From NCBI GenBank assembly GCA_027492035.1, contig JAOZFT010000004.1, positions 544,001 through 608,000 on the forward strand: DNA of 64,000 bases. Direction: 5' to 3'. Of this stretch, positions 25,186-63,798 are shown in pieces (the first letter of the stretch is position 1; every line of letters begins with the position of its first letter). The stretch is from Thermoproteota archaeon. GTDB lineage: Archaea; Korarchaeota; JAOZGF01; JAOZFZ01. The translations under genes and the position numbers were made by a program. The notes beneath the pieces were generated by a model, which had not been told where the DNA came from, searched no databases, and worked only from the letters and a program-made list of their open reading frames with translations.

Positions 25186-25204
25186 ATGAAGGTGTTTTTA
25201 AGAA

Positions 25205-26907: not shown

Positions 26908-26916
26908 AGGAGAGAA

Positions 26917-28296: not shown

Positions 28297-28302
28297 AGGA
28301 AT

Positions 28303-41969: not shown

Positions 41970-42138
41970 AACCCAAACTCACCTTCCCCTAAAAAGAAAA
42001 ACTTAAATAGTGAATAAAAAAGGGGTACTTCATCCATAAAAAAAATCTTTTGAAAAATTTTTGAAAAAGAAAAATTTAAAAAAAGTAAGTACCATAGATA
42101 AGTATTTTTGGTGAATATTTAAAAGTTTTTAAGAAAAG

Positions 42139-42573
42139 GTGAAAAAATTGGTTAAGAAACTTTTAAAAAATAAGAAAGGGATATCACCAGTAATAGCGAC
42201 AGTCATAATCGTGGCAGTAGCAATAGCTATAGCCATAGCAGTGGCGTTATGGGCAACAGGACTAGTAGGAACTTTCACAAGGTACGAAAAACTAGAAGTA
42301 TCTGCAGCATGGGCGAACAGTACTGGAGTTTATCTGATTGCGAATAACACAGGCTCCTCCACGGTAACTGTTAGTAGTGTCTTTGTAAATGGGGAACCTG
42401 CTAGTGCGTTTGGTGCTACTGTTTCTAGTCCTAGTTTACCATGCACTATTAGCCCTGGCAATGGACAATTATTTAAGATAACTTCCAGCAACTTTAAGTC
42501 AGGCGTAACATACGAAATTACACTTCACACTGCTTCTGGTAAAGATTATCCTAAATCGGTAACTGTGCCTTGA
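42139..42573 (+). CDS. major archaeal type IV pilin (copy A)
   Basis: KKG|ISPVIATVIIVAVAIAIAIAVALW class III signal; followed by an oligo-T tract. Confidence 0.9.
   Translation: MKKLVKKLLKNKKGISPVIATVIIVAVAIAIAIAVALWATGLVGTFTRYEKLEVSAAWANSTGVYLIANNTGSSTVTVSSVFVNGEPASAFGATVSSPSLPCTISPGNGQLFKITSSNFKSGVTYEITLHTASGKDYPKSVTVP
42221..42260 (+). repeat. 40-bp exact inverted repeat, copy 1 (partner 63680-63719)
   Basis: CAATAGCTATAGCCATAGCAGTGGCGTTATGGGCAACAGG, compared base by base. Confidence 0.92.
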
Positions 42574-42588
42574 AACTTTGCACATTAC

Positions 42589-42606
42589 CCCCCCTTTTTC
42601 TTTTTA
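42589..42606 (+). terminator. archaeal oligo-T terminator
   Basis: C-run then TTTTTCTTTTTT, about 15 bp after the pilin stop. Confidence 0.5.
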
Positions 42607-43125
42607 AGAAAGCTGAATTTTTGCTATAGAAATCCTAAACAGTTATTCTCTTCCTATATTTTATTTAAACTTACGCTTAAGGTTCCTATTTTGCAGATTC
42701 CCTAAAATTTTTCTTTTAGAATTTGGGGGCTAAATAGTAACTTTTATGGAATAAAATTTTGCAAAACAAAAGATGTAACGATATACGATATCACAGCAAT
42801 TGCTGGAACCAAAAACTAGGCTAGTGTTCAGGAATTTATTCAACTAATAACGGAGCTGGTATGTAAAACCGAAATTCTGTTGAAATGAAAGAGAAAAATA
42901 TAGAAATAAGGAAAAAAGAAGGCTAAAAAATGTAACAAAGAAGAAAAGACCATAAAAAGGGATCATAATTTTTCTTGAAGGCATAGGAAAAATTAAAAAG
43001 TAAAGACTTATCTTCCTATAAGAGACTCCTCTTCTCATTTAATTTATGTCTTATATGCCTGTTAAGAACTTTGTTAATAAGTTGTTTAAAGAAATTGTTT
43101 GAAGAATGTTTTGGGGGTTTGGGAA

Positions 43126-43923
43126 ATGGATGTTGTTGTTTGTGTGAAATCTGTCCCTTTAAGTGAACAAGAAATCGTTATTAATGAGGAAGAAACCGGT
43201 GTTGTTAAGGAGAATTTTAAGTATGAAATGAATGAATGGGACTCCTATGCTTTAGAGGAAGCTGTTCAGTTGAAAGAGAAACTTGGCGGAAAAGTTACAG
43301 TAGTGACTGCTGGAGCTCCTAACTGGAACTTAGACTTTGTTTTGCGGGAGTGCTATGCCAAAGGTGCAGATGAAGCAGTTAAAGTTGTTGATGAAGCTTT
43401 TGAGCAACTTGACCCCCTCACCACTGCCAAAGTTTTGGCTGAAGTAATTAAGAAATTAAATTATGACTTGGTTTTGACAGGGGTTCAGGCTTCTGATGAC
43501 AACTACACTCAAACAGGGGTTACTTTAGCCAAATTGCTTGGTTTACCTCATGTTTCAGTTGTAACCAAGGTTGGGGTTTCGCAGGATCAAAAATTTTTAA
43601 CTGTGAATCAGGAATTGGAAGGGGGATATGAACAAATTATCCAAGTTTCTTTACCTGCTTTGTTAACTATACAGACAGGAATAAATCAACCAAGGTATGC
43701 TTCTTTAATGAAGATAAGGGCAGCTATGAAGAAGGAAATTAAAACCTTAAAACTTGAAGATTTAGGGTTTACCAGAGACAAATTACTTGGAATGGTTCCT
43801 GTTAAAGTTGAAAGAGTTTTTACACCTAAAGTTGAGAAAGCTGTAAAATTCTTGAAAGGTTCTCCTGAAGAAATTGCTCAACAAATAGTTGAAATACTGA
43901 AGGATAAAGGATTGATTGGGTGA
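43126..43923 (+). CDS. etfB: electron transfer flavoprotein beta subunit
   Basis: MDVVVCVKSVP, MNEWDSYALEEA, AKGADEA, GVQASD, INQPRY. Confidence 0.95.
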   Translation: MDVVVCVKSVPLSEQEIVINEEETGVVKENFKYEMNEWDSYALEEAVQLKEKLGGKVTVVTAGAPNWNLDFVLRECYAKGADEAVKVVDEAFEQLDPLTTAKVLAEVIKKLNYDLVLTGVQASDDNYTQTGVTLAKLLGLPHVSVVTKVGVSQDQKFLTVNQELEGGYEQIIQVSLPALLTIQTGINQPRYASLMKIRAAMKKEIKTLKLEDLGFTRDKLLGMVPVKVERVFTPKVEKAVKFLKGSPEEIAQQIVEILKDKGLIG

Positions 43924-44914
43924 GGCTGAGGTGTCTGAAGTAATTGTAGTTGCTGAACAAAGAGAGGGGAAATTTAGAGACGTAACTTTTGAATTAATAA
44001 GTAAAGCTAAAGAATTGAGTAAAAGTAGCGGTTTCAAAATTACAGGGGTTATCTTAGGCTATGGAACCAACGAACTAGCGCAGGAACTGTCCCTTTATGG
44101 TTTAGACGAAGTTGTTTCTATTGAACATGAAATTTTAAAAAATTACAGCTGTGAAGGGTACGTGAAGGCGCTTTCAAGTTTCTTAAGGGAAAGAGAACCT
44201 GTTTTAACAATGATAGGTCACACTGTTTATGGTTTAGACTACGCTCCAGCTTTAGCTGCAGAGTTAAATTTTCCGTTAGTGACTGATTGCATAAATTTGT
44301 CGATGGAGAACAGGAAACTAAAGGTTACGCGGCAGATGTACAGTGGGAAAATAAATGTTGAATTCAGTTTCCCCAGGGCAGAAAAATACATGGTTACTGT
44401 TAGGCCTACAGTGTTTAAACCAGCTGAAAAAACAGGGAAAAAATCTAGAGTAGTTAAAGTTAAGGCTGAAATACCGGTTAAGGAACTGAAAACAAAATTT
44501 ATTGAATTAATCAAGCCTTCAGCTGAAGAAGTAGATATTTCGCAAGCAGACGTAATTGTTTCTGTTGGGAGGGGAATAGGTGATAAAGATAACTTGCCCA
44601 TTGTTGAATCTTTAGCTGAAGCAATAGGTGCAGCTTTAGGGGCTTCAAGACCTGTTGTTGACAATGGCTGGCTTCCTAAAAGTAGGCAGGTGGGACAGTC
44701 AGGGAAAACAGTTAAGCCAAAGGTTTACTTAGCAGTAGGGATTTCAGGTGCTATGCAGCATGTTATGGGTATGAAGGGAAGCGAAACAGTTATAGCAATA
44801 AATAAAGACCCTAATGCACCAATATTTGATGTTTCTGACTATGGTGTTGTAGCTAACTTATTTGACATAGTTCCAACTTTAACGGAAACTATAAAGAAAA
44901 TAAGGGGAACTTAA
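43916..44914 (+). CDS. etfA: electron transfer flavoprotein alpha subunit
   Basis: VSVGRG, GASRPVVD, QVGQSGK, GISGAMQH..GM, AINKDP.APIF. Confidence 0.96.
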   Translation: MGEAEVSEVIVVAEQREGKFRDVTFELISKAKELSKSSGFKITGVILGYGTNELAQELSLYGLDEVVSIEHEILKNYSCEGYVKALSSFLREREPVLTMIGHTVYGLDYAPALAAELNFPLVTDCINLSMENRKLKVTRQMYSGKINVEFSFPRAEKYMVTVRPTVFKPAEKTGKKSRVVKVKAEIPVKELKTKFIELIKPSAEEVDISQADVIVSVGRGIGDKDNLPIVESLAEAIGAALGASRPVVDNGWLPKSRQVGQSGKTVKPKVYLAVGISGAMQHVMGMKGSETVIAINKDPNAPIFDVSDYGVVANLFDIVPTLTETIKKIRGT

Positions 44915-45289
44915 GTATTACTTCCCCCTTTTTCAAAACATTATTCAAGTTTTCAACAAAGTCCTTTAAAGAATAGCTTATAAGAGCCCTCCTTTCCTAC
45001 TGGCTTCATAGAACCCCTTTGCTCCTTATTTTTCATGAGTCAGTTTACACTTCGCCTTTCAACTTCCCTTTTTTTACTTTGGACAATAAATTATTTACAC
45101 GTGCTTTTTGTCCTGTATATTAGCCTTTCATGGTTAAATGATCCTTGTTAAGTCGCTGGCGTTAACAGCCTCATTTCTTAAACACATTTTTTTACTTTCT
45201 TTCTAGGTTTTATTTCTAAGTGGTCCGGGAGTCCTGTAAAAAAGGAAAGTTGGTTACAGAAACTAAAAATTTTTTTAAACTTAATATTT

Positions 45290-46453
45290 TTAGAAGTTTT
45301 TGAGTACCCTTCTCGCTATAACTATCCTTTGTATTTCGTTTGTTCCTTCATATATTTCAGTTATTTTGGCGTCTCTGAAGTATCTTTCAACAGGGTAATC
45401 CTTTGTGTACCCGTATCCTCCATGTATCTGGATTGCTTTAATTGTTGTTTTCATTGCTACTTCTGAAGCGTAAAGTTTAGCCATTGAAGAAAGCTTAATG
45501 TACTCTTCCTTTTCTCCTTTATCTTTCAGGTATGCTGCTTTTAAAATTAAAAGTCTTGCTGCTTCAATTTCTGTGGCCATGTCTGCAAGCATCCATTGAA
45601 TAGCTTGGAAATTACTTATTGGTTTCTGAAACTGAACTCTTTCTTTCGAGTACTTTACACTTGCTTCAAAAGCTGCTTGGGCAATTCCTAAAGCTTGGGC
45701 ACCTATCCCTATCCTTCCACCATCCAATGTAAACATAGCTATTTTAAACCCTTCATTTTCAGTTCCTAAAAGGTTTTCCTTTGGCACTGTACAATTGTTA
45801 AATATTAATTCAGTGGTTGAACTTCCTCTAATTCCAAGCTTCTTTTCTTCTTTTCCAACTTTGAAGCCCTTAAAGCCTTTCTCAACAATGAAGGCACTTA
45901 TTCCTCTATGTCTCTGCTCCTTTGTACCTGTCCTTGCAAAAACAATGAAGATTTTAGCTTCTTTACCGTTTGTGATGAACTGTTTGTTCCCATTTAGAAT
46001 ATAAAAATCTCCTTCTTTAACAGCTTTACATTCTATTCCTGCAGCATCTGAGCCATAATTAGGTTCTGTTAAGGCAAAAGCACCGAGTTTTTGGCCACTA
46101 GCTAAAGGTTTCAGGTATTTACTTCTTTGTTCATTGTTTCCAAACTTATAAAGAGGGTCACAGACTAGGGAGTTGTTGACAGACATTATTACACCAACAG
46201 ATGCACTGGCCTTAGAAATTTCTTCTTCAGCTAAAGCGTAACTTACAGTGTCCAAACCTGCTCCTCCATACTCTTCAGGAATAAATACACCCATTAAACC
46301 AAGTTCACCCATTTTTTTAATTACTTTTTCTGGGAAAACCTCTTTCTCATCTATTTCTGCAGCAATCGGCTCTATTTCTTTTTCAGCAAATTCTTTAGCC
46401 ATTTTTCTAGTCATTTCTTGTTCAGGTGTAAACTTGAAATCCAACAGCTTCAC
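45290..46453 (-). CDS. acyl-CoA (butyryl-CoA-type) dehydrogenase
   Basis: ALTEP..GSD, NGNKQFITNG, KLGIRGS, QIHGGYGY, IYEGTNEIQR. Confidence 0.95.
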   Translation of the reverse strand: MKLLDFKFTPEQEMTRKMAKEFAEKEIEPIAAEIDEKEVFPEKVIKKMGELGLMGVFIPEEYGGAGLDTVSYALAEEEISKASASVGVIMSVNNSLVCDPLYKFGNNEQRSKYLKPLASGQKLGAFALTEPNYGSDAAGIECKAVKEGDFYILNGNKQFITNGKEAKIFIVFARTGTKEQRHRGISAFIVEKGFKGFKVGKEEKKLGIRGSSTTELIFNNCTVPKENLLGTENEGFKIAMFTLDGGRIGIGAQALGIAQAAFEASVKYSKERVQFQKPISNFQAIQWMLADMATEIEAARLLILKAAYLKDKGEKEEYIKLSSMAKLYASEVAMKTTIKAIQIHGGYGYTKDYPVERYFRDAKITEIYEGTNEIQRIVIARRVLKNF

Positions 46454-46461
46454 CTACTTTT

Positions 46462-47244
46462 TCACTTCCCCTTAAACTCAGGTTTCCTTTTTTCAAGAAA
46501 AGCTTCCATCCCTTCCTTATGATCTTCTGTTGAAAAGCATAAAGAGAAAAGTTCAGTTTCTAATTCGCACCCCCTATTTAAATCCATGTTAAATCCTTCA
46601 TTCAACGCCTTTTTAACGAATGACAAAATTAAGCTGCTTTTGTTTGTTATCTCTTTAGCTAACTCCATAACTTTACTCATTAACTCCTCTTTTTTAACTA
46701 CTAAATCCACTAACCCAATTTCTAATGCTTCTTCAGCATTTAAAACTTTCCCTGTGTAAATAAGCATTTTAGCCTTGCTTAAACCCACTAATCTACTTAA
46801 CCTTTGAGTTCCTCCCCAGCCCGGAATTATTCCAAGGTTTATTTCTGGCTGTCCAATTCTGACATTTTCAGAAGCAACCCTTAAATCACAGGCTAAAGCT
46901 AGTTCGCAGCCTCCACCTAAAGCATAACCGTTTATAGCAGCTATGACGGGTTTGTTTAGGTTTTCAATTTTCTTCGTCACTTCATGCCCTAAAATAGAAA
47001 AAACTCTGGCCTCTTGAAAACTCATTTTCTCCATTTTCTTTATGTCAGCTCCTGCGGAGAAAGCCTTTTCACCAGCACCAGTTAAAACTACAGTTTTAAC
47101 AGTGTCATCTCTTTCCAAAACAGTGAAAACTTCAAGTAGCTCCCTTAATCCTTCAAGGTTTAAAGTGTTTAATTTTTCGGGTCTATTCAACTTGACAACT
47201 GCAATTTCTTCTTCTTTATTTACTTCAACATACTTGAAATCCAT
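46462..47244 (-). CDS. crt: enoyl-CoA hydratase (crotonase)
   Basis: AFSAGADI, GYALGGGCELALACD, QPEINLGIIPGWGGTQRL. Confidence 0.92.
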   Translation of the reverse strand: MDFKYVEVNKEEEIAVVKLNRPEKLNTLNLEGLRELLEVFTVLERDDTVKTVVLTGAGEKAFSAGADIKKMEKMSFQEARVFSILGHEVTKKIENLNKPVIAAINGYALGGGCELALACDLRVASENVRIGQPEINLGIIPGWGGTQRLSRLVGLSKAKMLIYTGKVLNAEEALEIGLVDLVVKKEELMSKVMELAKEITNKSSLILSFVKKALNEGFNMDLNRGCELETELFSLCFSTEDHKEGMEAFLEKRKPEFKGK

Positions 47245-47413
47245 TTCTTAACTCTCCCCCCTTCAGAAAACAAGAAAATTATTTTCCTATCTTCTTGTGT
47301 TTTTACTGTAATTTCTACTGTATTTTTTAAAAAGGTTCTTTTTATTTTTTAATTGCTGTTCTCTTTTTTCTTTAAAGGAAGGGAGTTAGAAAATGTTAAG
47401 GAAGGTGTGAATA

Positions 47414-49099
47414 ATGAAAAATAAGGAAATACATATTCTCTTGTTAACAATACTTTTCATAGGTTCCCTTCTTATGTTCACTTATCAAGTTACTGGACAA
47501 GGTTTGGAATGGGAAATTTTGAAAGAATTTTACAACCTAGAAATAAATAGGGATGGTTCAGTAAATCTTTACCTCTACTTGAAATTCCACCTTTTAAGAG
47601 GTCAAATTCAAAAATGTGTTTCAATTCCCCTTCCGAACAAGTACTTCTCAAATGTGCAAGTCTCAACTAACGACAGCAGAAACTGGATAAATTACTACAG
47701 GGAAGAGAAAAATAACTGGAATGGTTTAACAGTTTATGTGGCGCGAACCCTTAATTCAGGGGAAGAATTCACAATTGAAGTTACCGCTAAAATAAACAAA
47801 ATAATTTACAGCGACGAAACAAATAAAGGGAATGTGGGGGTAATGTTCATTCCAGCTTGGTGGGAAAGTCCACCTGCAGAAATAAAAAAGTTAAGGATAC
47901 GTATAGTCCTGCCTGAGGGAGTTAAAATAGAAGATGTGAAAACCACCCAAAACTACTGGATGAACAGTGGATTAACTAAGGACGGAAGGACATGGGTGTA
48001 TTGGGAAAAACAGAACCTACCGCCAACCACGAAGTACATAGTTGGAGTTTCCTTTCCTAAACAATACGTACAAACCGGTAAAGAAAAGCCTTTTTCAGTA
48101 ACAGAAAACCCTTCCCCTACTGAACCCTTAAACTTTTTCTTCAACCTGTTCCCTTTCCTACTTTTCACTGGGTTCATATTCTACACTTTAATTAGAAGAC
48201 CAATTATAAGGAATGAGTATAAAGATCCAGAGTTCGAAATAGAGTTTATGGGCCCAAGAAAAGACTTGGATCCTGTTGAAGCAGCTGTTTTGTTGAAAAC
48301 ACATCCAGGAAAAATAATATCTATGATCCTTTTCTCTTTAGCTATGAAAGGAGCCATAAAAATACTAAGTTACACCCCTTTAAAAATAGGAAAAGAAGAA
48401 CCGCTCTTAAAACTGAAAAGATACGAAAGTATGGTTTTGAAATGCATAATAAATAATGTTCTTGAAGAGAAATGCCTAATAAATACTTTAAGGTATATAA
48501 GGAAAAGAGTTGATTATAAGGTGAGGTATTTTTGCAGAAAAGAAACAGAGGAATATTATCAAAAACTTGTTGAAAAGAAATGGAACCGGATAAAACACAC
48601 AAAACTAGCAAGTGAAGCATTTAAACAATACCAAAGACAACTACTTTGGCTATTCATAGATAAAGACTTTAAAAAGAAAACAGAGGAAGAAATGCAAAGA
48701 AAAAAACAGACGGAGCCTATTCCAGTACCTGAAATCTATATTTATTACTTCCCAGTTCCAACTTACACTTCACCAACAAAAGAAATTCCCTCAACAACGC
48801 AAAAACCAGGAATAAAAACTCCAACTGCTACACTGCCAACATCAACTTCACAGCCGGTACCAGTAATCACATCAATAGAAAAATTTGCTAATCAAGTGGC
48901 ATCTGCAATTGAACAAACATCAAACCAGGTAATCAAGAACATAGAGGAAGCAGCGAAAGTGCTTACAACACCTCACGAGCAAACTCAACAAACCTCTCAC
49001 GTATCTAGCAGGTCCTGTGTCTGTGCATGTGTATCCTGCGCCTGTGCCTGCGCCTGCGTAAGTTGCGCTTGCGCCTGTGCTGGAGGAGGAGCAGGATAA
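47414..49099 (+). CDS. DUF2207-like membrane protein with C-terminal Cys-Ala repeat tail
   Basis: Signal peptide, I..DGS extracellular domain, GVSFP, one TM, L.PVEAAVL; ends SCVCACVSCACACACVSCACACAGGGAG. Confidence 0.75.
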   Translation: MKNKEIHILLLTILFIGSLLMFTYQVTGQGLEWEILKEFYNLEINRDGSVNLYLYLKFHLLRGQIQKCVSIPLPNKYFSNVQVSTNDSRNWINYYREEKNNWNGLTVYVARTLNSGEEFTIEVTAKINKIIYSDETNKGNVGVMFIPAWWESPPAEIKKLRIRIVLPEGVKIEDVKTTQNYWMNSGLTKDGRTWVYWEKQNLPPTTKYIVGVSFPKQYVQTGKEKPFSVTENPSPTEPLNFFFNLFPFLLFTGFIFYTLIRRPIIRNEYKDPEFEIEFMGPRKDLDPVEAAVLLKTHPGKIISMILFSLAMKGAIKILSYTPLKIGKEEPLLKLKRYESMVLKCIINNVLEEKCLINTLRYIRKRVDYKVRYFCRKETEEYYQKLVEKKWNRIKHTKLASEAFKQYQRQLLWLFIDKDFKKKTEEEMQRKKQTEPIPVPEIYIYYFPVPTYTSPTKEIPSTTQKPGIKTPTATLPTSTSQPVPVITSIEKFANQVASAIEQTSNQVIKNIEEAAKVLTTPHEQTQQTSHVSSRSCVCACVSCACACACVSCACACAGGGAG

Positions 49100-49522
49100 T
49101 TACAAAATTAACTTTATAACCTATTAACTTTTCTAGTTCACTTACAACTTCAATGGACTTATTCTTTACAATTAAAAACTGAAAATCAATTTTCCGTTCA
49201 AATTTTCCTCTATGATGCACACTTCACTTCCTATCCTTCCAGCTTCCTCAACTCTTTTAATACTAAAATATTACTTCCTCAACTGCGGGTAAGTTTCTTT
49301 AATTTTAAAATTGCCAGGATTATCAACTTTAAATTCTTTATTGTTCAATTTATCAATCAGGATACTTCCTTTCGGTAGAAAGGATAAATTAAGGTAAGAA
49401 GTTGTGTTTTTCTCTTGAAAATTCACTGTAAGAACTTTCGCTAAGTTTTCTAGAATAAACTGCTTAGCCTCAGCTTCTCTAACGGTTCCTTCACCAGTTA
49501 CATTTTCATTTTTAATTTTCAA
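49100..49522 (-). pseudogene. decayed gene fragment(s), function unknown
   Basis: Reading continues past the TAA at 49271 (YFSIKRVEEAGRIG..) and then in another frame (ERKIDFQFLIV..LEKLIGYKVNF). Confidence 0.3.
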
Positions 49523-49912
49523 TCTTTAAACCTAAAACTTACCTTCTTGGTCTTTTAAACATTTTCTGTTCTGGAAAGAATCAGTTTCAGTTTGTGACTC
49601 CAAGGGGGTTCGTATTGGGAAAAGGGTGAAAAGAAAAATAGTGTCCTCCACTTAGATTTACTTAGATTAAGAGTTAGTTATAATAGTTGAATCTTGGCTC
49701 TCAATTATTGAAGAACATAGAAGTTCTGGGTATCCAAAAAAGGAGGTGGCTCAAGCAGAATTTGAACTTGCACCAGCAGCTGAAAATGGGGTGGATAAAG
49801 AAATAATAAAAACTTTAAACATTCTCTTCAACGAAGGAAGTGAATCCTTAAATTCAACAAGTTTACGATAAAAACATATAACTTTATTTTTCTATGAAAA
49901 ACTTTATTTTTT

Positions 49913-50713
49913 ATGGCTGTAGTCTATGTGGGGAGAGTGAAGGATAGAGTTGATTTCGTCACTAAAATATTAGAAATTTACCAAGAAGAAATTTCAAGAG
50001 TTAAGATGATATTTATAAAGCCGAACATTGTGTCTTATGAAAGTTACCCAACTACAACGCACCCTGAAGTTTTAAACGCTTTACTTTCTAAACTTGGAAA
50101 TAAAAAGGTTGTGGTTGGGGATGGACCTGCCTTTGATGCAGGGGATTCAAGGAAAATTATTGAAGAACACCCGTTGAAAAGGGTTTGCGATAAGTTTAAT
50201 GTTCCCTTAATTGATTTAAACAGCAGCGAAATGGTGAAGGTTAGGAGTGGCAGAGGTTATGGTTTAAAAGTTTCTGTGATTCCTTTCAAGTTCGAATATT
50301 TTATTTCTCTCCCTGTTTTAAAGGTTCATAAAGTTTGCGGTTTAACTGGGGCTTTAAAAAACCAGTTTGGACTGGTTTCAAAATGGGACAGGATCAAGAT
50401 GCATGCAAAGATTAAAGACATCCATAAAGGAATAGCTGAACTGAACTCTGTAATTAACCCAGACTTATTGATTATGGACGCTGTAGAAACCCTTTTAAAT
50501 GCTCAAGAAGTAAGACACGGAGGAAAAAAAGCAAAGTTAGGGTACATGCTTGCCGGAAAAGACCCTGTGGCTTTGGACACTGTAGGGCTTCAATTACTGT
50601 CAAGAATTGAACCTAAACTTAAAGGAAAGAAACCTGAAGATATAAAGTCCATAAGTTACGCTGCACAAATAGGGGTGGGAGACAGTGAATTCACACTGGA
50701 AAATGTAAATTAG
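49913..50713 (+). CDS. DUF362 domain protein
   Basis: IFIKPN, TTHPEV, VVGDGP, ISLPVLKVH, TGALKN.FG, DPVALD. Confidence 0.9.
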   Translation: MAVVYVGRVKDRVDFVTKILEIYQEEISRVKMIFIKPNIVSYESYPTTTHPEVLNALLSKLGNKKVVVGDGPAFDAGDSRKIIEEHPLKRVCDKFNVPLIDLNSSEMVKVRSGRGYGLKVSVIPFKFEYFISLPVLKVHKVCGLTGALKNQFGLVSKWDRIKMHAKIKDIHKGIAELNSVINPDLLIMDAVETLLNAQEVRHGGKKAKLGYMLAGKDPVALDTVGLQLLSRIEPKLKGKKPEDIKSISYAAQIGVGDSEFTLENVN

Positions 50714-51006
50714 AGCTTAATTAGTTTCTATTCTAGAATTTATTTAAAGAATAGTTTATGAACATTTAGGAAAACACGGAAAATTTATTGTTAAGTATTT
50801 GTTAAATGGAAACAACTTTTCGCTTTGCTCAATACTTATTTCAGACGTTTTCCTTCACATATCATTAAAGTTTCCTTTGCAGAGTCCTTAAAAACAACAC
50901 TTTCTTAATTGAAAGCTGGATTGCATGGAAGAGCTGGAAAAAAATAAGAAAGAACTGTTTTTGTATTGTGAAGCAGTAACAGCGGCAGTAAATATGTGTC
51001 AGAGGA

Positions 51007-51699: not shown

Positions 51700-51787
51700 A
51701 ATTCAAAACCTCCCTTTAAACCTGTTTAAAGGATTTTGTTGAAGGGAATAAATTATGAAAGACCAAGGTTAAACTAAATAGAAGAAT

Positions 51788-54779: not shown

Positions 54780-54846
54780 ACCCCCCTTTCCTCTTTTAAA
54801 CATAAAAGAAAGTAATTCTTTAATTTTTTTAAGGGAGAGTCCTGGT

Positions 54847-55596
54847 TTGGAAGATGTTAACATCGTTTTCTTCGACTTAGATGAAACCCTTTACAATTAC
54901 GGTGCAGTTAGGCTCAAAGCCACTTTGCAAGTAGCTGAGCATGTTGAGGAACTAGGTTTGGTGGAAGCTGGAAAATTCATTTCAGTTCATCAAAAAATTT
55001 GGAAGGAAATTTACAGGAAATACAAAGGTAAATGTGAAATGTTTAATAGGGAAATACGTTTCAGAGAAGTTTTTAGGGAATTAAAGGTTCCAGTAAAAAC
55101 TAAACTTATTAAGGAACTTGCTAATTTGTTTTGGAGCAAGGTTTATGAGGAAATGAAGCCTTACCGGGATGTGAAACCGTGTCTTGAGGCTTTAAAAAGA
55201 GAAGGGGTTAAAATAGGTTTAATTTCAGATGGTTACGTAAAAATTCAGGCGAAAAAACTCGAAGCTTTAAAGATAAGGAAGTATTTCGACGTTGAAACGT
55301 ATTCAGAGGAAGTTGGCGAAAATAAACCCTCCAAAAAAATTTTCCTTTTAGCTTTAAAGAAAGCAGGTTTACCGGCTGAGGAAGCGGTAATGGTTGGAGA
55401 TAACTTAAAAACGGATATCCTAGGGGCTAAAAAAACAGGTTTAAAAACTATCCTTGTTAAAAGAGGAATATTTAAAGATTTAAAACCTGAAAATGAATGG
55501 GAAGAGCCTGACTTCATAATTAACGAATTAACGGAAACCCCAAAAATCATAAAAGGAATGAAAAGTTTTAGGAAATCCTTAAAACTTGGCCGTTAA
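54847..55596 (+). CDS. HAD superfamily hydrolase (YjjG-like)
   Basis: FFDLDETL, ISDG, KP, MVGDNLKTDILGA. Confidence 0.92.
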   Translation: MEDVNIVFFDLDETLYNYGAVRLKATLQVAEHVEELGLVEAGKFISVHQKIWKEIYRKYKGKCEMFNREIRFREVFRELKVPVKTKLIKELANLFWSKVYEEMKPYRDVKPCLEALKREGVKIGLISDGYVKIQAKKLEALKIRKYFDVETYSEEVGENKPSKKIFLLALKKAGLPAEEAVMVGDNLKTDILGAKKTGLKTILVKRGIFKDLKPENEWEEPDFIINELTETPKIIKGMKSFRKSLKLGR

Positions 55597-55691
55597 ATAA
55601 GATATAAAAGAGAAACTTAAGTTAGTGATCAAAAAAGGTTTAGGAATGCTAGAAAAGTAAAAAGGGAATGGTTAAAGGTAATAAAAGGGTT

Positions 55692-56384
55692 TCACTTCTC
55701 TTTCTCTAGAATCACTACTTCGCAAATGTTTGAAGCCTTAGAACGGAAAGTTTCAGCGTCAGTTTTTTCCCCTACAATTGCTCCGTAATGCATTGGAATC
55801 GCTACCTTCGGTTTTATCCTTTTAACTGCTTCAACAGCTTCATCTGGGGTCATTACATATGTTCCGCTCACCGGCAGCAAAGCTACGTCTATTTCCCCAA
55901 GGTTACTCATTTCACTTATTAGGTCTGTGTCCCCTGCATGGTAAATTTTTATGTTTCCGATTTTCAAAATAAACCCTACCCCGTTATATTCTTTCGGATG
56001 GAAAACTTGCCCTGGGGCACGGAACTTGTTTACATTGTAGGCTGGAACAGCCCTTATTTCCACTCCTTTAACCGTTGCCTCCTCTCCAGGTTTTAAATAC
56101 TTTACTTCCTCCACTTTTAAACCCTTAATTTTTCCTTTACAGTTTATTGAAGCTATAATTACAGTGTCCTCCTTAACCACTTTTTTTATGTCTTCTAAAC
56201 TTAAGTGGTCAAAGTGTTCATGGCCCACAGTAACAACGTCAGCTTTTTCTTCCTGAGAAGGAATCCTGAACGGGTCTGTGTAAATTGTTTTATCATCAGT
56301 AATTCTGAAACAATCGTGCTCTAAATAGAAAAACTTTACACCTTTATATTCAAACACCACGTTTCCACCTCTACGGAAAAACAA
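55692..56384 (-). CDS. MBL-fold metallohydrolase
   Basis: IYTDP, HEHFDH, VPAYN, YHAGDT, PMHYG. Confidence 0.9.
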   Translation of the reverse strand: MFFRRGGNVVFEYKGVKFFYLEHDCFRITDDKTIYTDPFRIPSQEEKADVVTVGHEHFDHLSLEDIKKVVKEDTVIIASINCKGKIKGLKVEEVKYLKPGEEATVKGVEIRAVPAYNVNKFRAPGQVFHPKEYNGVGFILKIGNIKIYHAGDTDLISEMSNLGEIDVALLPVSGTYVMTPDEAVEAVKRIKPKVAIPMHYGAIVGEKTDAETFRSKASNICEVVILEKEK

Positions 56385-56500
56385 AAACTTTTTCTACATT
56401 TTTCTTTATTTTTTTAAGTTAACTTTTTAGCTGATTTCCTTCTTTAATTTTTCTAGTTTTAAAAACGAGTTTTTAAAAAATGTTATGGTCGTGTTGGTTT

Positions 56501-57007
56501 ATGGTTACTTTCATTGCTGACGGTATGCTTGGTAGAATAGCTAAGTTTTTGAGATTAGCAGGTTACGACACATTGTTTGCAGGGGAAAACCTTAAGGATA
56601 AGGAAGTAATTAAAGTTGCGTTTAAGGATGAAAGAATTCTTTTAACAAAGGATAAAAAACTTTATTTAGAAGCTATAAAAAATGGGGTTGACGCATTTCT
56701 TGTTTCTGAAAAGGGCTTCTTTTCATCTATAGCTGAAATAGCTGTGAATTATGGTTTAAACTTAAATTTTAAACCTGACACTTCAAGATGCCCAAAATGT
56801 AATCACCCTGTAAGGAAAACAGAACCTTGGGAAGTTAAAGGGAGAGTTCCGGAAAAGACTTTTTTGAAGCAGAAAGTTTACTGGGTATGCGATAACTGCG
56901 GCCAAATTTACTGGCTTGGATCTCACTGGATAAACATTAAAAAGGAGGAAAAAGAAATTCAAAAAAGAATTGAAAGGCTAAAGAGTCAGAGAAGAATAAA
57001 TCATTAA
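56501..57007 (+). CDS. Mut7-C RNase (PIN-like + Zn ribbon) protein
   Basis: FIADGMLGRIAKFLRLAGYDT, LLTKD, RCPKCN, CDNCGQIYWLGSH. Confidence 0.92.
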   Translation: MVTFIADGMLGRIAKFLRLAGYDTLFAGENLKDKEVIKVAFKDERILLTKDKKLYLEAIKNGVDAFLVSEKGFFSSIAEIAVNYGLNLNFKPDTSRCPKCNHPVRKTEPWEVKGRVPEKTFLKQKVYWVCDNCGQIYWLGSHWINIKKEEKEIQKRIERLKSQRRINH

Positions 57008-57236
57008 CTAAAAATTTTTTAGGTCCACAGTAGAAAAGTGTTTGACTTAAAACTTTCAGGTGTTCAAAAGGTTTCAGGAATTAAATTTGTTGTCAAGGGA
57101 AGTAGATGAAAATTTAGTCAATTCATGCTTATTTAAGGTGGGGAAGTAATTTTATTTTTGGAAAAATGTAAGATGCATGAAGGAAACTAGAAAATAAAGT
57201 CAAGACTGTTCTTTAATAAGGCTTTTTTAAAGAGGA

Positions 57237-58937
57237 TTGGGAAACTTGACTCTCTTTATTTCATTAACTGAAACCTGTCAAAAAATAGCTTCTACTTCAA
57301 GTAGACTTGAAAAAATGAGGATTCTTAATGACTTTCTTCGAAAATTAAGCAGGGAAGAAATTAAACCAGCTATAAACCTGATTTTAGGAAGAATAGCGGG
57401 GAAGGGTGAGATAAAGACAGGAATAAGTTCAGGCATTATTTTATCTGCTTTAAAAAAGGTTTTAGGTGATAATTTTAAGTTTAGAGACAAATGTAAAGAA
57501 TCAGCTGATTTAGGTGAATACGTTGAATGTCTCCTTAAAAGTTTTAAACCTGTAAAGCAGCAGGTTTTTCTAGAAACAACTTATAGCTTAAAGGGCATCT
57601 ACGAAGTCTTGAGGAAAGCCTTTCTTTTGAAAGGGAAGAAATCCAAGGAGAAAAAGGAGGAAATCGTTGCTTCCCTCTTAACGAACTTGACACCTTCAGA
57701 ATCTAAGTACTTGGTAAACATTATTTTAGGCGATTTAAGAATAGGGTTGGAGGAAGGAACTGTAGAGCAGGCTTTGGCTAAGCTTTTAAACTTAAACATT
57801 GAAACTGTAAAGAGGGCTAACATGTTGCTTGGAGATATAAGTGAAACTGTTTATTTAGGGTTAACCGACAAGAAATCTCTACTGACTGCAAAAATACAGC
57901 TCTTCAAACCAATAAAACCAATGTTGGCTGAAACCGCTGAAAATCTAAAAGAAATATTTGATGAAATGCATGGTCCTGTGTCTCTTGAACCTAAACTAGA
58001 TGGTGCGAGGGTTCAAATTCACCATTCTAAGGGAAAAACAAAAATATTTACTAGAAGACTTTCAGAAGTAACTAATAGCTTACCTGAAATAATCACCTTA
58101 ACGAAACAAGAATTCACTTCTGCCGATTACATCGTGGAGGGGGAGGTTGTTGCTGTTTCAAGAAAGGGAGAAATTCTTCCATTTAATTACTTGATGCGGA
58201 GGTTTAGAAGAACAAAGGAAATAACAGAAATATCTGAAAAAATTAAACTTAAACTTTTTCTCTTCGACATTCTTTACTACCAAGGGAAGCAACTCATAGA
58301 CGCTCCGTATGAACAACGCAGAGAAAAACTTGTTGGAGAATTTGGGAGAGAGAACGTGGTTCCTGCTTTATTAACCAAAAACGACAAAAAAGCTGAAGAG
58401 TTCTTTTTAAACTGTGTCAAGGAGGGACATGAAGGAGTAATGGCTAAAAACCCTAAATCAATTTATGAACCGGGTAAAAGAGGAAAAAACTGGCTTAAAT
58501 TAAAGAAAACACTTACTTTAGACTTAGTTATAGTGGGAGCCCAATGGGGTTACGGTAGAAGGAGGAAATGGTTAAGTGACTATTTCTTAGCTGTGTGGAA
58601 CGAAAGTAAAACAGACCTACTGATTGTGGGAAAAACATTTAAGGGGTTGACCGACCAAGAATTCGAATGGATAACCAAGAAACTCCTAGAAAAAAAGTTA
58701 AGGGAAAAGGGGTACGTTGTCTGGGTTAAACCTGAAATAGTGGTTGAAACGGCTTTTAATGAAATCCAGAAATCTAAACTTTACCCTTCAGGCTACGTCT
58801 TAAGGTTTGCAAGAATAAAAAATATAAGGTTTGATAAAGAATTGAAAGAAGCTGACACAATAAAGGAAGTGAAGAAAATATTTGAAACGCAGAAAAAGAG
58901 AAACCTTGAAAAAATATGGAGGAGCTTCTCAGCTTAA
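57237..58937 (+). CDS. lig: ATP-dependent DNA ligase
   Basis: PMLA, motif I EPKLDGAR, EGE, FDIL, EGVMAK, WLKLK, DLVIVG, LRFAR. Confidence 0.96.
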   Translation: MGNLTLFISLTETCQKIASTSSRLEKMRILNDFLRKLSREEIKPAINLILGRIAGKGEIKTGISSGIILSALKKVLGDNFKFRDKCKESADLGEYVECLLKSFKPVKQQVFLETTYSLKGIYEVLRKAFLLKGKKSKEKKEEIVASLLTNLTPSESKYLVNIILGDLRIGLEEGTVEQALAKLLNLNIETVKRANMLLGDISETVYLGLTDKKSLLTAKIQLFKPIKPMLAETAENLKEIFDEMHGPVSLEPKLDGARVQIHHSKGKTKIFTRRLSEVTNSLPEIITLTKQEFTSADYIVEGEVVAVSRKGEILPFNYLMRRFRRTKEITEISEKIKLKLFLFDILYYQGKQLIDAPYEQRREKLVGEFGRENVVPALLTKNDKKAEEFFLNCVKEGHEGVMAKNPKSIYEPGKRGKNWLKLKKTLTLDLVIVGAQWGYGRRRKWLSDYFLAVWNESKTDLLIVGKTFKGLTDQEFEWITKKLLEKKLREKGYVVWVKPEIVVETAFNEIQKSKLYPSGYVLRFARIKNIRFDKELKEADTIKEVKKIFETQKKRNLEKIWRSFSA

Positions 58938-58973
58938 ACCTTTAAAACCCATGAATTAAAACTTTCTCTATAG

Positions 58974-59870
58974 GTGTTCTCCATAGGTGGGTGGATGTTT
59001 TCTTTCAGAAAAAAGGTAAAAACCTACTGGGATTTATTTAGGTTTGAACATGGGTTAATGATGGGTTTAGGTGTACTCATAGGTTACTTTGCTTCTTCAC
59101 CTGCAAAGGTCGAGTTCCTTACTTTATCCAAAGGGTTTTTTGTGGCTCTATTTCTTGAAATGGCAGGTTTCGCCTTAAACGATTATTTTGACTACTTAGT
59201 TGATTTGGAAAATAAAAGATTTGACAGGCCTCTTATTAGAGGGGAGATCAGAAAGGAACAAATAATTCCTATTTCGATTTTCCTTTTTTCCCTTGGGTTA
59301 AGCGTTTCACTTACTATCAACTTCCTAGCTTTCATTTTCTCTTTAATACTAGCTATACTGGCTATACTGTACGATTGGAAAGTTAAAAAAAGGAAATATC
59401 TAGGAAACCAATACATAGCAGTAACAATGGCTGCCCCCTTCCTTTTTGGAAGCTTAATTTCGACAGGTAGGTTTGTGTCTGTTACAATAATTTTGGCCTC
59501 TATGGCTTATTTAGTAGGTGTTGGGAGAGAAATAATGAAGGATGTTGTAGATTTAGATGGTGACGTGAAACAGGGAATAACGTCTCTGCCTTCAGTTCTA
59601 GGTGTAAAAAATTCTTTAAAGATTGCTTCTGTTTTGTTGTTCAGCAGCACTCTCCTAAGCCCTGTCCCTTTAACACTTACCGACACTGCCTACTACATGA
59701 ACCCTCTATACGCTGTTCCTGTTTCAATAACTGATTTAGGTTTAATCTATACAAGTTTTGAGACATGGAGGTACATAGAGAAAAGGAAACTGAACGATTT
59801 AAGGAAAGAAACCTTAATTATTCTAATTATAGGCTTAATAGGTTTCTTTTTAGGAGCCTTTAGACTTTAA
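58974..59870 (+). CDS. UbiA family prenyltransferase, digeranylgeranylglyceryl phosphate synthase-like
   Basis: NDYFD..VD..N...RP...G, GN, REIMKDVVD..GD; multiple TM. Confidence 0.87.
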   Translation: MFSIGGWMFSFRKKVKTYWDLFRFEHGLMMGLGVLIGYFASSPAKVEFLTLSKGFFVALFLEMAGFALNDYFDYLVDLENKRFDRPLIRGEIRKEQIIPISIFLFSLGLSVSLTINFLAFIFSLILAILAILYDWKVKKRKYLGNQYIAVTMAAPFLFGSLISTGRFVSVTIILASMAYLVGVGREIMKDVVDLDGDVKQGITSLPSVLGVKNSLKIASVLLFSSTLLSPVPLTLTDTAYYMNPLYAVPVSITDLGLIYTSFETWRYIEKRKLNDLRKETLIILIIGLIGFFLGAFRL

Positions 59871-59883
59871 AAACTTTCATTAT

Positions 59884-61302
59884 TTAATGTTGAAACCTCC
59901 AACGGGTACCCTGCTTTGTGTCTTCCACAACTACCCCTAATTCCTTCAATTTCTTCCTTATTTCGTCTGAGAGAGCGAAAAGTTTCTGCCTCCTTAATTC
60001 ATCCCTAACCACAATCACTAATTCTATCAACTCCCTAACAATTTCTTCTTTAATTTCTCTTTCCTTTTGTAGAACTCCGAAGACGCTACTGAAATCTTTG
60101 AAGAATGAATCGATTTCACGATATAATGCCTCGTTTATTTCGTTCTTGTTCTTTATGAACCTGTTGATTTCTTTTACTAAATTAAATACTGAAGCTAAGG
60201 CCTTAGGTGTGTTGAAGTCGTCATCCATTGCTTGCACAAATTCCTTTTTTGCGTTCTTGACCTTTTCTTTCAACTCGATTTCAGCTTCACTTAACACCCC
60301 TTTACTCTTTCTCAGCAGCTTCAGCAGATCCAACAAATTATAAATTCTCTCTAGACTTTCTCTTGTTTGCTCCAAATGTTCTTCACGGAAATCTATAGGA
60401 CTCCTGTAATGTTTCGAAACAAAAAACAACCTTAAAACTTCAGGACCCCACTTTTTTAAGGCTTCCCGTATAGGGATTATATTACCTAAACTCTTACTCA
60501 TTTTTTCCCCTTTAATGTTTAAGAAACCGGTATGTAACCAATACTTCACCCAAGGTTTCTTCCCGGATGCAGCTTCACTTTGAGCTATTTCGTTTTCATG
60601 ATGAGGAAAAATTAAATCGCTTCCGCCGCCATGTATATCAAACTGTTCACCTAAATACTTCGAACTCATAACTGAACACTCTATATGCCATCCCGGCCTT
60701 CCATTCCCCCACGGACTAGGCCAGTTTGGCTCTCTAGGTTTTTTAAATTTCCACAATGCAAAATCTCCTGGGTTACGTTTATTTGGGTTAGGTTCAATGC
60801 GGTGCTTAACCAACTCCTCCCTTTTCTGCTTCGAAAGTTTTCCGTAATCCTTAAACTTGTCAACATCGAAATAAACTCCATCTTTAATCACGTAAGCGTA
60901 ATCCTTTTCAACAAGTTTCTTTATAACCTCTAACATCTCTGATATGTGACCTGTGGCAAAACAGTAAATGTCAGGATGTATGTCAAGAATATACATATCC
61001 CTAAAAAATTCTTGACTAAACCTTGTAACCAACTCTGTAGTAGTTACTCCCTCCTCCTGAGCCTTTTTTATTATTTTGTCATCTACGTCTGTAATGTTCA
61101 TAACCCACTTAACTTTAAACCCTCTCTTTTCAAGCCAACGGTGAATCACATCGAAAGCTGTGTAGGTTCTTGCATGGCCTACATGGCTGTAATCGTAGGG
61201 GGTAGGTCCACAAACATACATCCTCACCTCTCCCCTTCTTAGCGGCCTAAAAACTTCCTTTTTCCCGCTTAAAGTGTTAAACAATTTAATTTCCATCATC
61301 AA
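59884..61302 (-). CDS. cysS: cysteinyl-tRNA synthetase
   Basis: YVCGPT.Y..HVGH, DFALWK, GRPGWHIECS, FPHHENE, KMSKS. Confidence 0.98.
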   Translation of the reverse strand: MMMEIKLFNTLSGKKEVFRPLRRGEVRMYVCGPTPYDYSHVGHARTYTAFDVIHRWLEKRGFKVKWVMNITDVDDKIIKKAQEEGVTTTELVTRFSQEFFRDMYILDIHPDIYCFATGHISEMLEVIKKLVEKDYAYVIKDGVYFDVDKFKDYGKLSKQKREELVKHRIEPNPNKRNPGDFALWKFKKPREPNWPSPWGNGRPGWHIECSVMSSKYLGEQFDIHGGGSDLIFPHHENEIAQSEAASGKKPWVKYWLHTGFLNIKGEKMSKSLGNIIPIREALKKWGPEVLRLFFVSKHYRSPIDFREEHLEQTRESLERIYNLLDLLKLLRKSKGVLSEAEIELKEKVKNAKKEFVQAMDDDFNTPKALASVFNLVKEINRFIKNKNEINEALYREIDSFFKDFSSVFGVLQKEREIKEEIVRELIELVIVVRDELRRQKLFALSDEIRKKLKELGVVVEDTKQGTRWRFQH

Positions 61303-61454
61303 CCAACCTGCAACAAATACATCAGCTTAAGTTCACAAATGTTTCCCTTTCAAACCTTTAAGGGGGCTTTCGAAAAGTTAACCTTCTCTTATATTTATTT
61401 TTCATGAAAGAAGAGGAGGTTTTCTTTCACAGAAAAAAATTTCAGAAATAAATG

Positions 61455-61760
61455 CTACAACAGCCTCGTTAAGGGTGTAATGATTGCGAGTATCTTAAAA
61501 CTTGTTCCAACCATCCATTGCAAACGCTCTAAACATTTATCTACATAATGTACCAGCTCTTCTCTTAATTTGTTTATTTCTTCTTTTGTTTCTTTTCTCA
61601 GTTTGTTTGCATCCTCTTTGGTGGCGATACTCTCTAAAGCTGTTTTGGTCATAACTGATTGCATTTCAGGGTCCTTCGCTATTTCAACAGCTAAACTTTT
61701 TAAAGTCCATTTATCCCTCTTAATTCCTTCAACTATCTCTTCAGCAGATAAATTAGACAA
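61455..61760 (-). CDS. small coiled-coil protein with C-terminal hydrophobic tail (ATKED-type archaeal family), possibly decaying
   Basis: IATKEDANKLRKETKEEINKLREEL heptads followed by a weakly hydrophobic C-terminus. Confidence 0.5.
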   Translation of the reverse strand: MSNLSAEEIVEGIKRDKWTLKSLAVEIAKDPEMQSVMTKTALESIATKEDANKLRKETKEEINKLREELVHYVDKCLERLQWMVGTSFKILAIITPLTRLL

Positions 61761-62133
61761 ATTAAGCCGCCGAAACTTTTAAAGAAAACATTTTCACTTA
61801 AACACCCAACTCATTTTTTAAAAATTTTTACTTATTTCTATGTTAAGAATCAAGGGTTTAACTGGTGTCATCTGCTGAATCAGAATCGAAAATGATACTT
61901 TCTTTTATCTTGCTAAGCCTATTCGTTTACTGTCCTTGTTTCTTTCTCACATATCTATCTCCAGCTCTTATGAAAATAAAAAACAATCAATGGCCCTGTG
62001 CAGTGTTTAGTGGAAATTAAATAAATGCTTTTTGTACAAGTTATTCCTTAAAACTTTTCTTCTCCTCTGAAGTTAAGAAAATGTGTTTTTCCTTGTTTAT
62101 TTTGTCTTTTAAGTGCTCTAAAAGAGTTTGCTT

Positions 62134-63003
62134 CTATGAAATTATATTTAGGGCTTTGTACATGTTTCTATAGCTTTTCTTCAATTCTTCATTGCTCATT
62201 TTGTTTTTCACTTTATTTATTTCCTTTATTGCTTTTCCTTGGTTAAAAACCAGTTTTTTCACCAGATTTATTTTGTTTTCTATTTCCTCAATGTACTCTG
62301 TTAAATTTTTGTTTTCTGTTTGTAAAGTTAGGATTAGTGAAGGATTTTGGCTCAGTATTGCTTTCATCCAGAGGAGTAGAACTTTGAAGGTAGGCCCTGA
62401 AACCCCCTCTATTTCTTTTAAGTTTCTGTTTTCCAACATAAATGCCAAAACAAGACTTAAAAAATAGTTTAATGAAATGGTTAAACCCATTAATTCTTCA
62501 TGTTTTCTTAAATCCAAAGTAATGAATTTACATTCATTAAATATCTCTTTTGCTTTGTCAAGTTCCTTTTCCTTGTCTTTCACAGGTACTAAAACAATTT
62601 TTTCCTGGTTTATTTCCTTTACTCCTGGCCCGAAAAGCGGATGAAGAGAAATAACTTGCACGTTCCTTTTTCCAATTTTTTCCAGTGCTTGGAAAACTTT
62701 TTCCTTCAACGAAGTTATCTCTACTATTGTCTTTATTTTTCCAGTCTTTAAGGTGGTTTCGTTAAAAATTTTGTTCAGTATTTTTGGGGTTTCTGGTATT
62801 GGTAGAGAAAGGAAAACAATATCAGCGTTTTCTACTGCTTTCTTAAATGATTCTTCAAACTCTACTCCAAGCATTGAAGCTACTTTCTTTCCTTTCTCTT
62901 TATTTATATCATTAATCAAAACTTGGAACTTTTTATTTTTGAAATATTGGGTAAAAACTTGACCCATTGACCCCGCTCCACCTATAACTGCGATCTTAAC
63001 CAT
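62134..63003 (-). CDS. tyrA: prephenate dehydrogenase
   Basis: IAVIGGAGSMG, EITSLK, SLHPLFGP, H...M, GPTF. Confidence 0.87.
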   Translation of the reverse strand: MVKIAVIGGAGSMGQVFTQYFKNKKFQVLINDINKEKGKKVASMLGVEFEESFKKAVENADIVFLSLPIPETPKILNKIFNETTLKTGKIKTIVEITSLKEKVFQALEKIGKRNVQVISLHPLFGPGVKEINQEKIVLVPVKDKEKELDKAKEIFNECKFITLDLRKHEELMGLTISLNYFLSLVLAFMLENRNLKEIEGVSGPTFKVLLLWMKAILSQNPSLILTLQTENKNLTEYIEEIENKINLVKKLVFNQGKAIKEINKVKNKMSNEELKKSYRNMYKALNIIS

Positions 63004-63354
63004 TTTTTACACATCCTTAAACTCTACCTGGCCTCCCCTCAGTTTTTAATGCCCCCTTTCAACAACAGTTCATGAAAAACAGTTTATTTCTGTTGCATTT
63101 AATTATTAACCATTTTATAAAGAAGGAGGTCCTTTTTCAATTTTTTAAGGGTTAGAACGGTTATAACCCTTTCTTCTTCACTAAAAATTAAGTAATAAGT
63201 AAATTTGCTTAAAACCTTGAAAAAAGTGTTGAGTCCTTTGGAGTTGCAGCATTATCTCACATGCAGTTTCACTTACAGTTAAGGGCTTTAAATTGATTTT
63301 TAGGAGCCTGGGAGACTTAAAATCTTTTGAACTAAATGTAGAACCTCTTTACTT

Positions 63355-63798
63355 TTAAGGTATAACTACTGATTTAGGATAGTCTTTCCCTGAAGCAGTG
63401 TGAACAGTTACTTCATATGTTATCCCTGACTGCCAGCTTCCGGATGTAATGCTGGAAGGAGGACCAGATATTGTTATTTGCTGCCCACCACCAACAGCAA
63501 CTGTGAAAGGAAGAGTAGGAGATGACACTTTACTATTATCTGGTATACCATTCACGAAAACATCAGTAATTGTTACATCTGTTGAACCTGTGTTATTAAC
63601 AATAACCTGTACATCAGTGCCGTCATAATATATAGCAGTTATTTCTAACTTTTCATACCTGGTAAATGTCCCAACCAAACCTGTTGCCCATAACGCCACT
63701 GCTATGGCTATAGCTATTGATACAGCGACGATTATAACTGTTGCTACAACAGGATGAATGCCTTCCCTATCTCCTATAAATAAAAGTTTCCTTCTCAT
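63355..63798 (-). CDS. major archaeal type IV pilin (copy B, paralogue of 42139..42573)
   Basis: REG|IHPVVATVIIVAVSIAIAIAVALWATGLVGTFTRYEKLE...HTASGKDYPKSV. Confidence 0.9.
   Translation of the reverse strand: MRRKLLFIGDREGIHPVVATVIIVAVSIAIAIAVALWATGLVGTFTRYEKLEITAIYYDGTDVQVIVNNTGSTDVTITDVFVNGIPDNSKVSSPTLPFTVAVGGGQQITISGPPSSITSGSWQSGITYEVTVHTASGKDYPKSVVIP
63680..63719 (-). repeat. 40-bp exact inverted repeat, copy 2 (partner 42221-42260)
   Basis: CCTGTTGCCCATAACGCCACTGCTATGGCTATAGCTATTG is the reverse complement of 42221-42260. Confidence 0.92.

Follow-up and report, generated by a model that had tools for sequence, protein, structure and literature searches.

The 64,000-nucleotide window analysed here (positions 544,001 to 608,000 of contig JAOZFT010000004.1, from an assembly of a Thermoproteota archaeon) carries two genes for archaeal type IV pilins, which we call A and B, that face each other and share an exact tract of 40 nt within the region coding for their N-terminal helix. 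Pilin A is an open reading frame (ORF) on the forward strand (42139-42573) of 144 amino acids if read from the GTG at 42139; its start is more probably the TTG at 42148 (141 amino acids), which is preceded by an AGGTGA ribosome-binding site, read by eye, and at which the database form of A, P0001, begins. Its paralogue B on the reverse strand (63355-63798, 147 amino acids) is 60-62% identical to A. Both ORFs are intact and convergent, and each has its own start, its own leader and a TATA-like box upstream (the box read by eye). The leader of A, ...KNKKG, is followed by ISPV... and gives the processed N-terminus ISPVIATVIIV, and that of B, MRRKLLFIGDREG, is followed by IHPV..., with ..GDREG before and IHPVVATVIIV.. 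after the cleavage site. A and B both show the charged leader, the G, A or S at position -1 and the hydrophobic H-domain that define a class III (prepilin) signal according to PMC4371748, and the genome encodes the prepilin peptidase and the PilB/PilC assembly proteins expected of a type IV pilus.

The predicted structure of A, the one of the two that was modelled, has the fold of such pilins: the AlphaFold2 model (predicted local distance difference test score of 90.3) consists of a long N-terminal α-helix (residues 17-46) followed by a C-terminal β-sandwich of eight strands. With this model Foldseek retrieves 8fk7 first (E 5.6e-7) and then 8q30, 6w8x, 6nav and 6w8u, the top matches being pili of Pyrobaculum calidifontis, Sulfolobus acidocaldarius (Aap), S. 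solfataricus and S. islandicus; likewise, a search of PDB sequences leads to archaeal pilus subunits, with 8fk7 as the best match (5.4e-7). The archaellin/type IV pilin N-terminal model TIGR02537 is passed by A only (28.2 bits, cut-off 20), B scores 193 bits against the profile of its own pilin family, and Pfam Pilin_N gives a sub-threshold match only. Identification as UpsA, the subunit of the UV-inducible pilus, was considered and rejected, as the scores of A (49.8 bits) and B (35.5 bits) against the equivalog model NF046073 lie far under its cut-off of 130 bits; the two are relatives of UpsA. Judged by sequence, and for A by predicted fold as well, each of the two genes is complete and encodes an archaeal type IV pilin. 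A and B are probably old paralogues, separately expressed and saturated at their synonymous sites, and we take this to be part of the best explanation of what follows.

An earlier note on this DNA had described the two proteins as near-identical in their N-terminal helices and C-termini and divergent in between, and this is borne out: the mature helices are identical except for 2 of 39 residues, both C-termini carry HTASGKDYPKSV, and the middles have diverged with a dN (nonsynonymous divergence) of 0.51. Its other statements about the sequence, namely 40/40 identity of two copies that are inverted and in frame in convergent genes, hold without exception. In A the tract lies at 42221-42260 on the forward strand, from the second base of codon 28 to the second base of codon 41, and encodes IAIAIAVALWAT inside the N-terminal helix; the copy in B, on the reverse strand at 63680-63719, is its exact reverse complement. 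In register the tract comprises codons I29 to T40 of A (ATA GCT ATA GCC ATA GCA GTG GCG TTA TGG GCA ACA) plus two extra bases at either end, and the codon alignment confirms that the four different Ala codons GCT, GCC, GCA and GCG are kept in register. Further copies of the 40-mer were sought throughout the assembly (1,868,193 bp, 42 contigs), in which those in A and B are the only two, and viral contigs gave no match. The tract is embedded in a wider similarity, which a repeat search resolves into an inverted arm of 145 nt (78% identical) and another of 98 nt (76%), and blastn into matches of 137 nt (81%) and 65 nt (83%). It sits where A and B are most alike (78-81% over about 140 nt) and where the DNA is locally rich in G+C. 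The longest exact runs between the two genes are 40 nt and then 13, 11 and 11 nt.

What sets the tract apart is its silent sites. The codon alignment of A and B contains 88 identical residues with degenerate codons, 42 of which are encoded by the same codon in both genes: 7 of 15 before the tract, 11 of 11 inside it (plus Trp), 3 of 13 in the following GLVGTFTRYEKLE, where the codons hence differ at 10 of 13 residues as had been noted before, and 21 of 49 in the rest, which makes 31 of 77 outside the tract. The check along the genes of dS (synonymous divergence, NG86) that had been proposed gives 1.37 before the tract, 0 inside, a saturated and therefore not computable value after it, 1.27 in the middle domain and 0.69 in the C-terminal tail, that is, zero in the tract and high or saturated divergence in both flanks. 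When every codon of both genes was redrawn from the codon usage of the genome (766 long ORFs), 2 of 200,000 trials produced a run of at least 40 nt (P = 1e-5), the longest run having a median of 12, and when the labels of same and different codons were permuted among the 88 positions, a conservative procedure in that the matches of the tract itself stay in the pool, P was 0.0025. The tract is thus longer than the silent divergence of its flanks permits and exceeds chance; since inspection preceded the choice of the pair, this real excess should not be called overwhelming.

We believe, with a probability of roughly 70%, that the tract results from short-patch gene conversion between the two paralogues in their conserved N-terminal helix, brought about by ordinary recombination. 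A piece of at most 40 nt encoding the core of the N-terminal α-helix would recently have been copied from one pilin gene to the other, with RadA-dependent homologous recombination leading to heteroduplex formation and then, by short-patch repair, to ectopic gene conversion at a place where the genes were already most alike and locally G+C-rich. Conversion would most likely be a by-product of repair, and its patches would be retained under selection for a common helix that suits the peptidase, the assembly platform and the filament core used by both pilins; within a longer process of concerted evolution at the pilin ends, the tract may represent a single episode. The recent sequence exchange proposed in the earlier note gains support from the dS of zero between saturated flanks, from the free choice of codons in 25 homologous genes (see below), from the presence of the recombination machinery (four matches to the RadA/Rad51 family in the genome, the best with 297 bits) and from similar patches elsewhere. 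Away from the contig ends, 71 regions of the genome are covered by exact repeats of at least 30 nt, a count that includes tRNAs and tandem repeats. Several paralogue pairs, named by eye from their translations, share exact tracts of 38-125 nt between diverged flanks (150 nt, about 50-70% identical). The two Cdc48 ATPase domains have 125 nt in common, and those of a second gene 75 nt; a methylmalonyl-CoA-mutase-like pair has a triple patch of 63+35+33 nt; the two inverted 2-oxoacid oxidoreductase operons on contig C12, about 10-13 kb apart, share 54 nt in alpha and 51 nt in beta; a ClC channel pair shares 43 nt and an isopropylmalate/citramalate-synthase-like pair 38 nt. The regions that bear these patches, given as contig and position, are C9:142936-143879, C8:11278-12171, C31:27665-32480, C12:34109-47911, C38:115897-117978 and C1:12840-14415. 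Like the pilin tract, the other tracts sit on the most conserved motifs, and the oxidoreductase pair has the same inverted geometry as the pilins. Because there are several such pairs, short-patch conversion looks like a general process, and the data suggest that it acts throughout this genome.

Other origins of the tract have to be weighed against this. An accidental run of identical codons within identical amino acids, owed to codon preference or retained ancestry, would profit from the fact that ATA and GCA/GCT are preferred codons here, each with a probability of matching of 0.33-0.40, and the conservative shuffle is not astronomically small for a pair selected by inspection. However, both copies also contain the rare GCG (6% of the Ala codons of the genome) and GCC (14%), independent draws reach such a run at a rate of 1e-5 only, and the flanks are saturated on both sides, with a next exact run of 13 nt, so that we regard this origin as unlikely. 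A functional constraint on the nucleotides themselves, with the 40-mer kept in both genes as a regulatory RNA target, a protein-binding site or a translational signal, would account for two exact copies and for their location near the start of the coding sequence, at which elements of the mRNA can be active. The earlier note had pointed out that retention of the same codons by distant relatives would speak for constraint rather than for conversion. In 25 homologous genes (28 with distinct N-terminal coding sequences, minus A, B and one mis-anchored row), all of them distant comparators of at most 63% identity, the 40-mer is found in none, each of the 11 degenerate columns of the tract shows two to four codons, and the homologues of genomes G026 and G002 encode IAIAIAVA with other codons. 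An Rfam scan of 41900-42700 yields no match, and the predicted RNA folds of the tract regions are ordinary (z -0.88 and -1.59) and unlike between A and B. Because the codons of the tract columns vary freely in these homologues, distant as they all are, nucleotide-level constraint is not supported, and with no third copy in the genome and none in viral contigs we hold it to be highly unlikely. Finally, in a metagenome-type assembly of 42 contigs reads of one paralogue might have entered the consensus of the other during assembly or polishing. Yet forty contig ends have exact overlaps of 127 nt in common, which would indicate a de Bruijn assembly built with k = 127, a word size that greatly exceeds 40 nt and that a repeat of this length cannot confuse; the flanks are only about 80% identical, so that reads would not cross-map; and in the protein database A is also present from a second contig, together with a variant of B that is 96% identical and has an unchanged helix. 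An artefact of this kind we consider extremely improbable.

Could the tract instead be the crossover point of a switch? The earlier note had suggested that a crossover within the inverted tract reversibly flips the stretch between the two copies and thereby exchanges the variable domains of the pilins between promoters and leaders, as in phase or antigenic variation. The geometry on which this idea was built stands: the copies are inverted and in frame, the 5' ends of the genes lie outside and the variable parts inside a segment of 21,419 bp (42261-63679), and a crossover would yield two intact, in-frame hybrid genes. Moreover, RadA is present, and a conversion patch can accompany a crossover. 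The switch itself, however, finds no support. As both genes are complete and no more than three residues outside the tract distinguish the mature N-termini, a swap would exchange little beyond promoters and cleaved leaders. Besides the 3' parts of both pilin genes, the segment contains about 17 housekeeping genes, encoding electron transfer flavoprotein beta and alpha, acyl-CoA dehydrogenase, enoyl-CoA hydratase, DUF362 and DUF2848 proteins, a methyltransferase, malic enzyme, a haloacid dehalogenase hydrolase, a metallo-β-lactamase hydrolase, a Mut7-C RNase, an ATP-dependent DNA ligase, a UbiA prenyltransferase, cysteinyl-tRNA synthetase, prephenate dehydrogenase and two unknowns. The metabolic gene pair on contig C12 displays the same inverted-tract geometry, and a single orientation was assembled. 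That no recombinase had been recognised in the window is confirmed for the ORFs scanned there and can be extended to the whole 93.3%-complete assembly for the three families searched, IS110/Piv (PF01548), Phage_integrase (PF00589) and Resolvase (PF00239), with 0 matches each at E ≤ 0.01. Silent, promoterless pilin cassettes, the existence of which had been raised as well, were sought genome-wide by tblastn and with the family profile, and these searches return A, B and a distant paralogue C only. We therefore regard a switch of this type as very improbable, and receptor switching or virus evasion as its purpose is speculation. There is equally little to recommend a version in which the tract would be kept as a substrate for reversible, RadA-mediated inversion that does without a recombinase, a subpopulation would express each surface domain from the promoter of the other, and the conserved ends would act as recombination handles by which middles are swapped within and between lineages; if true, it would constitute a homologous-recombination-based pilin phase switch in an archaeon. 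Synteny with the genomes G001, G002 and G026, relatives too distant for this purpose, is uninformative on orientation, the one homologous neighbour being a 194-amino-acid ORF in G026. As a separate observation, the assembly has no match to the Phage_integrase family, to which XerA-type proteins belong, at E ≤ 0.01, whereas 14 of 14 control genomes have one; the gene may lie in the unassembled part.

Conversion in the helix would fit into a longer history of these pilins. Their family comprises 1002 proteins at E ≤ 1e-3 (among 1186 candidates), and in this poorly sampled lineage the nearest proteins are 60% identical once A itself and P0002, the 96%-identical variant of B, are set aside. Scans of metagenome and genome contigs with B give 21 and 9 loci, respectively, with full-length matches of at most 46% and partial matches of at most 63% identity. 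A pilin match is present in 6 of 41 related genomes at E ≤ 1e-3 and in 4 of 43 genomes of the phylum at E ≤ 1e-15. In addition to this patchy spread, a comparison with G001, G002 and G026 shows that pilins of the A and B types resemble metagenome proteins and those of other families (57-60% identical) more than anything in the one genome of the same family (37%), and loss or horizontal transfer of pilin genes is suggested. Of 122 family members, 87 can be divided by three anchor motifs (the other 35 were dropped), and within this set identical N-terminal segments and C-terminal tails are paired with very different middles. A tree of 86 middle domains places A with P0005 and B with P0019, P0021, P0011 and P0048, and these five proteins share one N-terminal segment, unlike that of A and B. 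In a subset of 18 rows, picked after the larger tree had been seen, the middle domains split into A-type and B-type (95/97), and the approximately unbiased (AU) test gives p = 0.019 for the other lineage as one clade; the ends (N-terminal helix plus C-terminal strand) group by lineage instead (99/97) and reject an A-type clade (AU p = 2e-7). Because helix and C-terminal strand group by lineage and the middle by type, long-term concerted evolution of the ends is suggested, and either repeated homogenisation of the ends or an exchange of middles would fit the trees. At the 3' end of the genes, the C-terminal tail (42497-42570 in A, 63358-63431 in B) has a dS below that of the rest (0.69 as against about 1.3 or saturation), and P0002 ends in ..KSVTIP, intermediate between ..KSVTVP of A and ..KSVVIP of B; this may be a weak hint of an older exchange there too.

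Several points nevertheless weigh against conversion and against the longer history in which we place it. The conservative shuffle reaches only P = 0.0025 for a pair that was chosen after the whole window had been viewed. Seven other pairs of pilin paralogues in related loci have exact matches of 9-17 nt only, the range that holds for eight pairs when A versus C is included. Patches of this sort are hence not general among pilin pairs; those seven pairs, however, are more diverged than A and B. As to the trees, the 86 middle domains remain compatible with a sister relationship of A and B in the AU test (p = 0.208), and in the 18-row subset A and B as one clade retain p = 0.078. In addition, the lineages compared in the test of ends against middle, those of the metagenome sequences, were taken from the sequences themselves.

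How does the pair compare with known cases of pilin variation and of exchange between paralogues? Piv-driven inversion of pilin genes in Moraxella bovis and M. lacunata is mentioned in PMC4073114. The Moraxella system depends on a dedicated site-specific recombinase, Piv, which acts on an invertible segment of roughly 2 kb with one expression site. In Neisseria, variation of pilE proceeds by non-reciprocal transfer from pilS, leaves the N-terminus conserved while the C-terminal part varies, and needs an archive of silent promoterless cassettes. In contrast to Moraxella, we find two full genes, 21.4 kb of housekeeping genes and no recombinase of the families searched, and in contrast to Neisseria there are no silent cassettes and the converted part is the constant, not the variable, region. 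Only the outline is common to the pair and these systems. With Moraxella it is the place at which recombination would act, within the conserved 5' portion of the coding sequence of inverted pilin genes, so that inversion swaps the variable parts; with Neisseria it is the non-reciprocal transfer between pilin sequences that have a conserved N-terminus and a variable remainder. The closest mechanism is that of Salmonella tufA/tufB, inversely oriented paralogues on one chromosome with non-reciprocal homologous exchange in the absence of a dedicated recombinase (PMC5485169), although the tuf genes are near-identical over 1185 nt and exchange long tracts by means of RecA, whereas silent sites of the pilins have reached saturation, the patch does not exceed 40 nt and the recombinase would be the archaeal RadA. 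Recombination in Sulfolobus acidocaldarius produces short-patch, often discontinuous conversion in which markers 20-30 nt apart are separated (PMC3367456), a pattern that fits both the pilin patch and the triple patch of 63+35+33 nt; there, however, it was observed in experiments with introduced DNA in another lineage, while here it would have to be read from one genome sequence. Biologically, the closest parallel is provided by Haloferax PilA1-6, dispersed pilin genes away from pilB/pilC whose products share an N-terminal hydrophobic domain and differ in the rest and each of which can form pili, although these are six genes of a different pilin subfamily as opposed to two (PMC4371748).

A search by title and abstract found no literature on conversion or concerted evolution between archaeal pilin genes. 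A and B would be a small and clean example of how ectopic conversion affects the constant helix in archaeal pilins and, together with the other patches, suggest that conversion in short patches occurs commonly in this uncultured lineage. They also carry a warning for annotation and evolutionary work, as trees of pilin N-termini would reflect homogenisation within genomes and not the history of the genes. A conversion patch as such is ordinary and touches no long-standing question; only a polymorphism in orientation would make the case remarkable.

The remaining pilus genes lie on the forward strand of the window. The PilB-like ATPase gene (20046-22298, T2SSE) is followed by that of the PilC-like membrane protein (22317-24236, T2SSF) and by five consecutive ORFs without a Pfam match (24268-30444; 305, 164, 403, 459 and 713 amino acids). 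The first of them (24268-25185), which matches no family, has by eye a pilin-type leader ending in ..KEGMKG and followed by ISPVISIAIITFF.., and the other four start with a hydrophobic helix; the five may encode minor pilins or pilus accessory proteins. The prepilin peptidase gene (39833-40663, Peptidase_A24 and Arc_PepC_II) stands just before that of the distant pilin-like paralogue C (40867-41349), which is 29% identical to A and lacks the tract, its longest exact match with A being 9 nt. Between C and A lies, on the reverse strand, the 194-amino-acid ORF (41385-41969), which has no Pfam match and may be a conserved pilin-associated gene; in the distant genome G026 a 47% identical homologue (18389-19000 of locus L043) is separated from the B-type pilin by about 0.9 kb. 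Within the segment between the tracts, a forward ORF of 561 amino acids without a family match (47414-49099) has hydrophobic segments at the N-terminus and, membrane-spanning in character, in the middle of the protein, and ends in a tail of Cys/Ala/Val repeats (..CVCACVSCACACAC..). On the reverse strand at 34696-36478, a gene for an AbiEii-type nucleotidyltransferase toxin and that of an adjacent helix-turn-helix protein form a putative type IV toxin-antitoxin pair.

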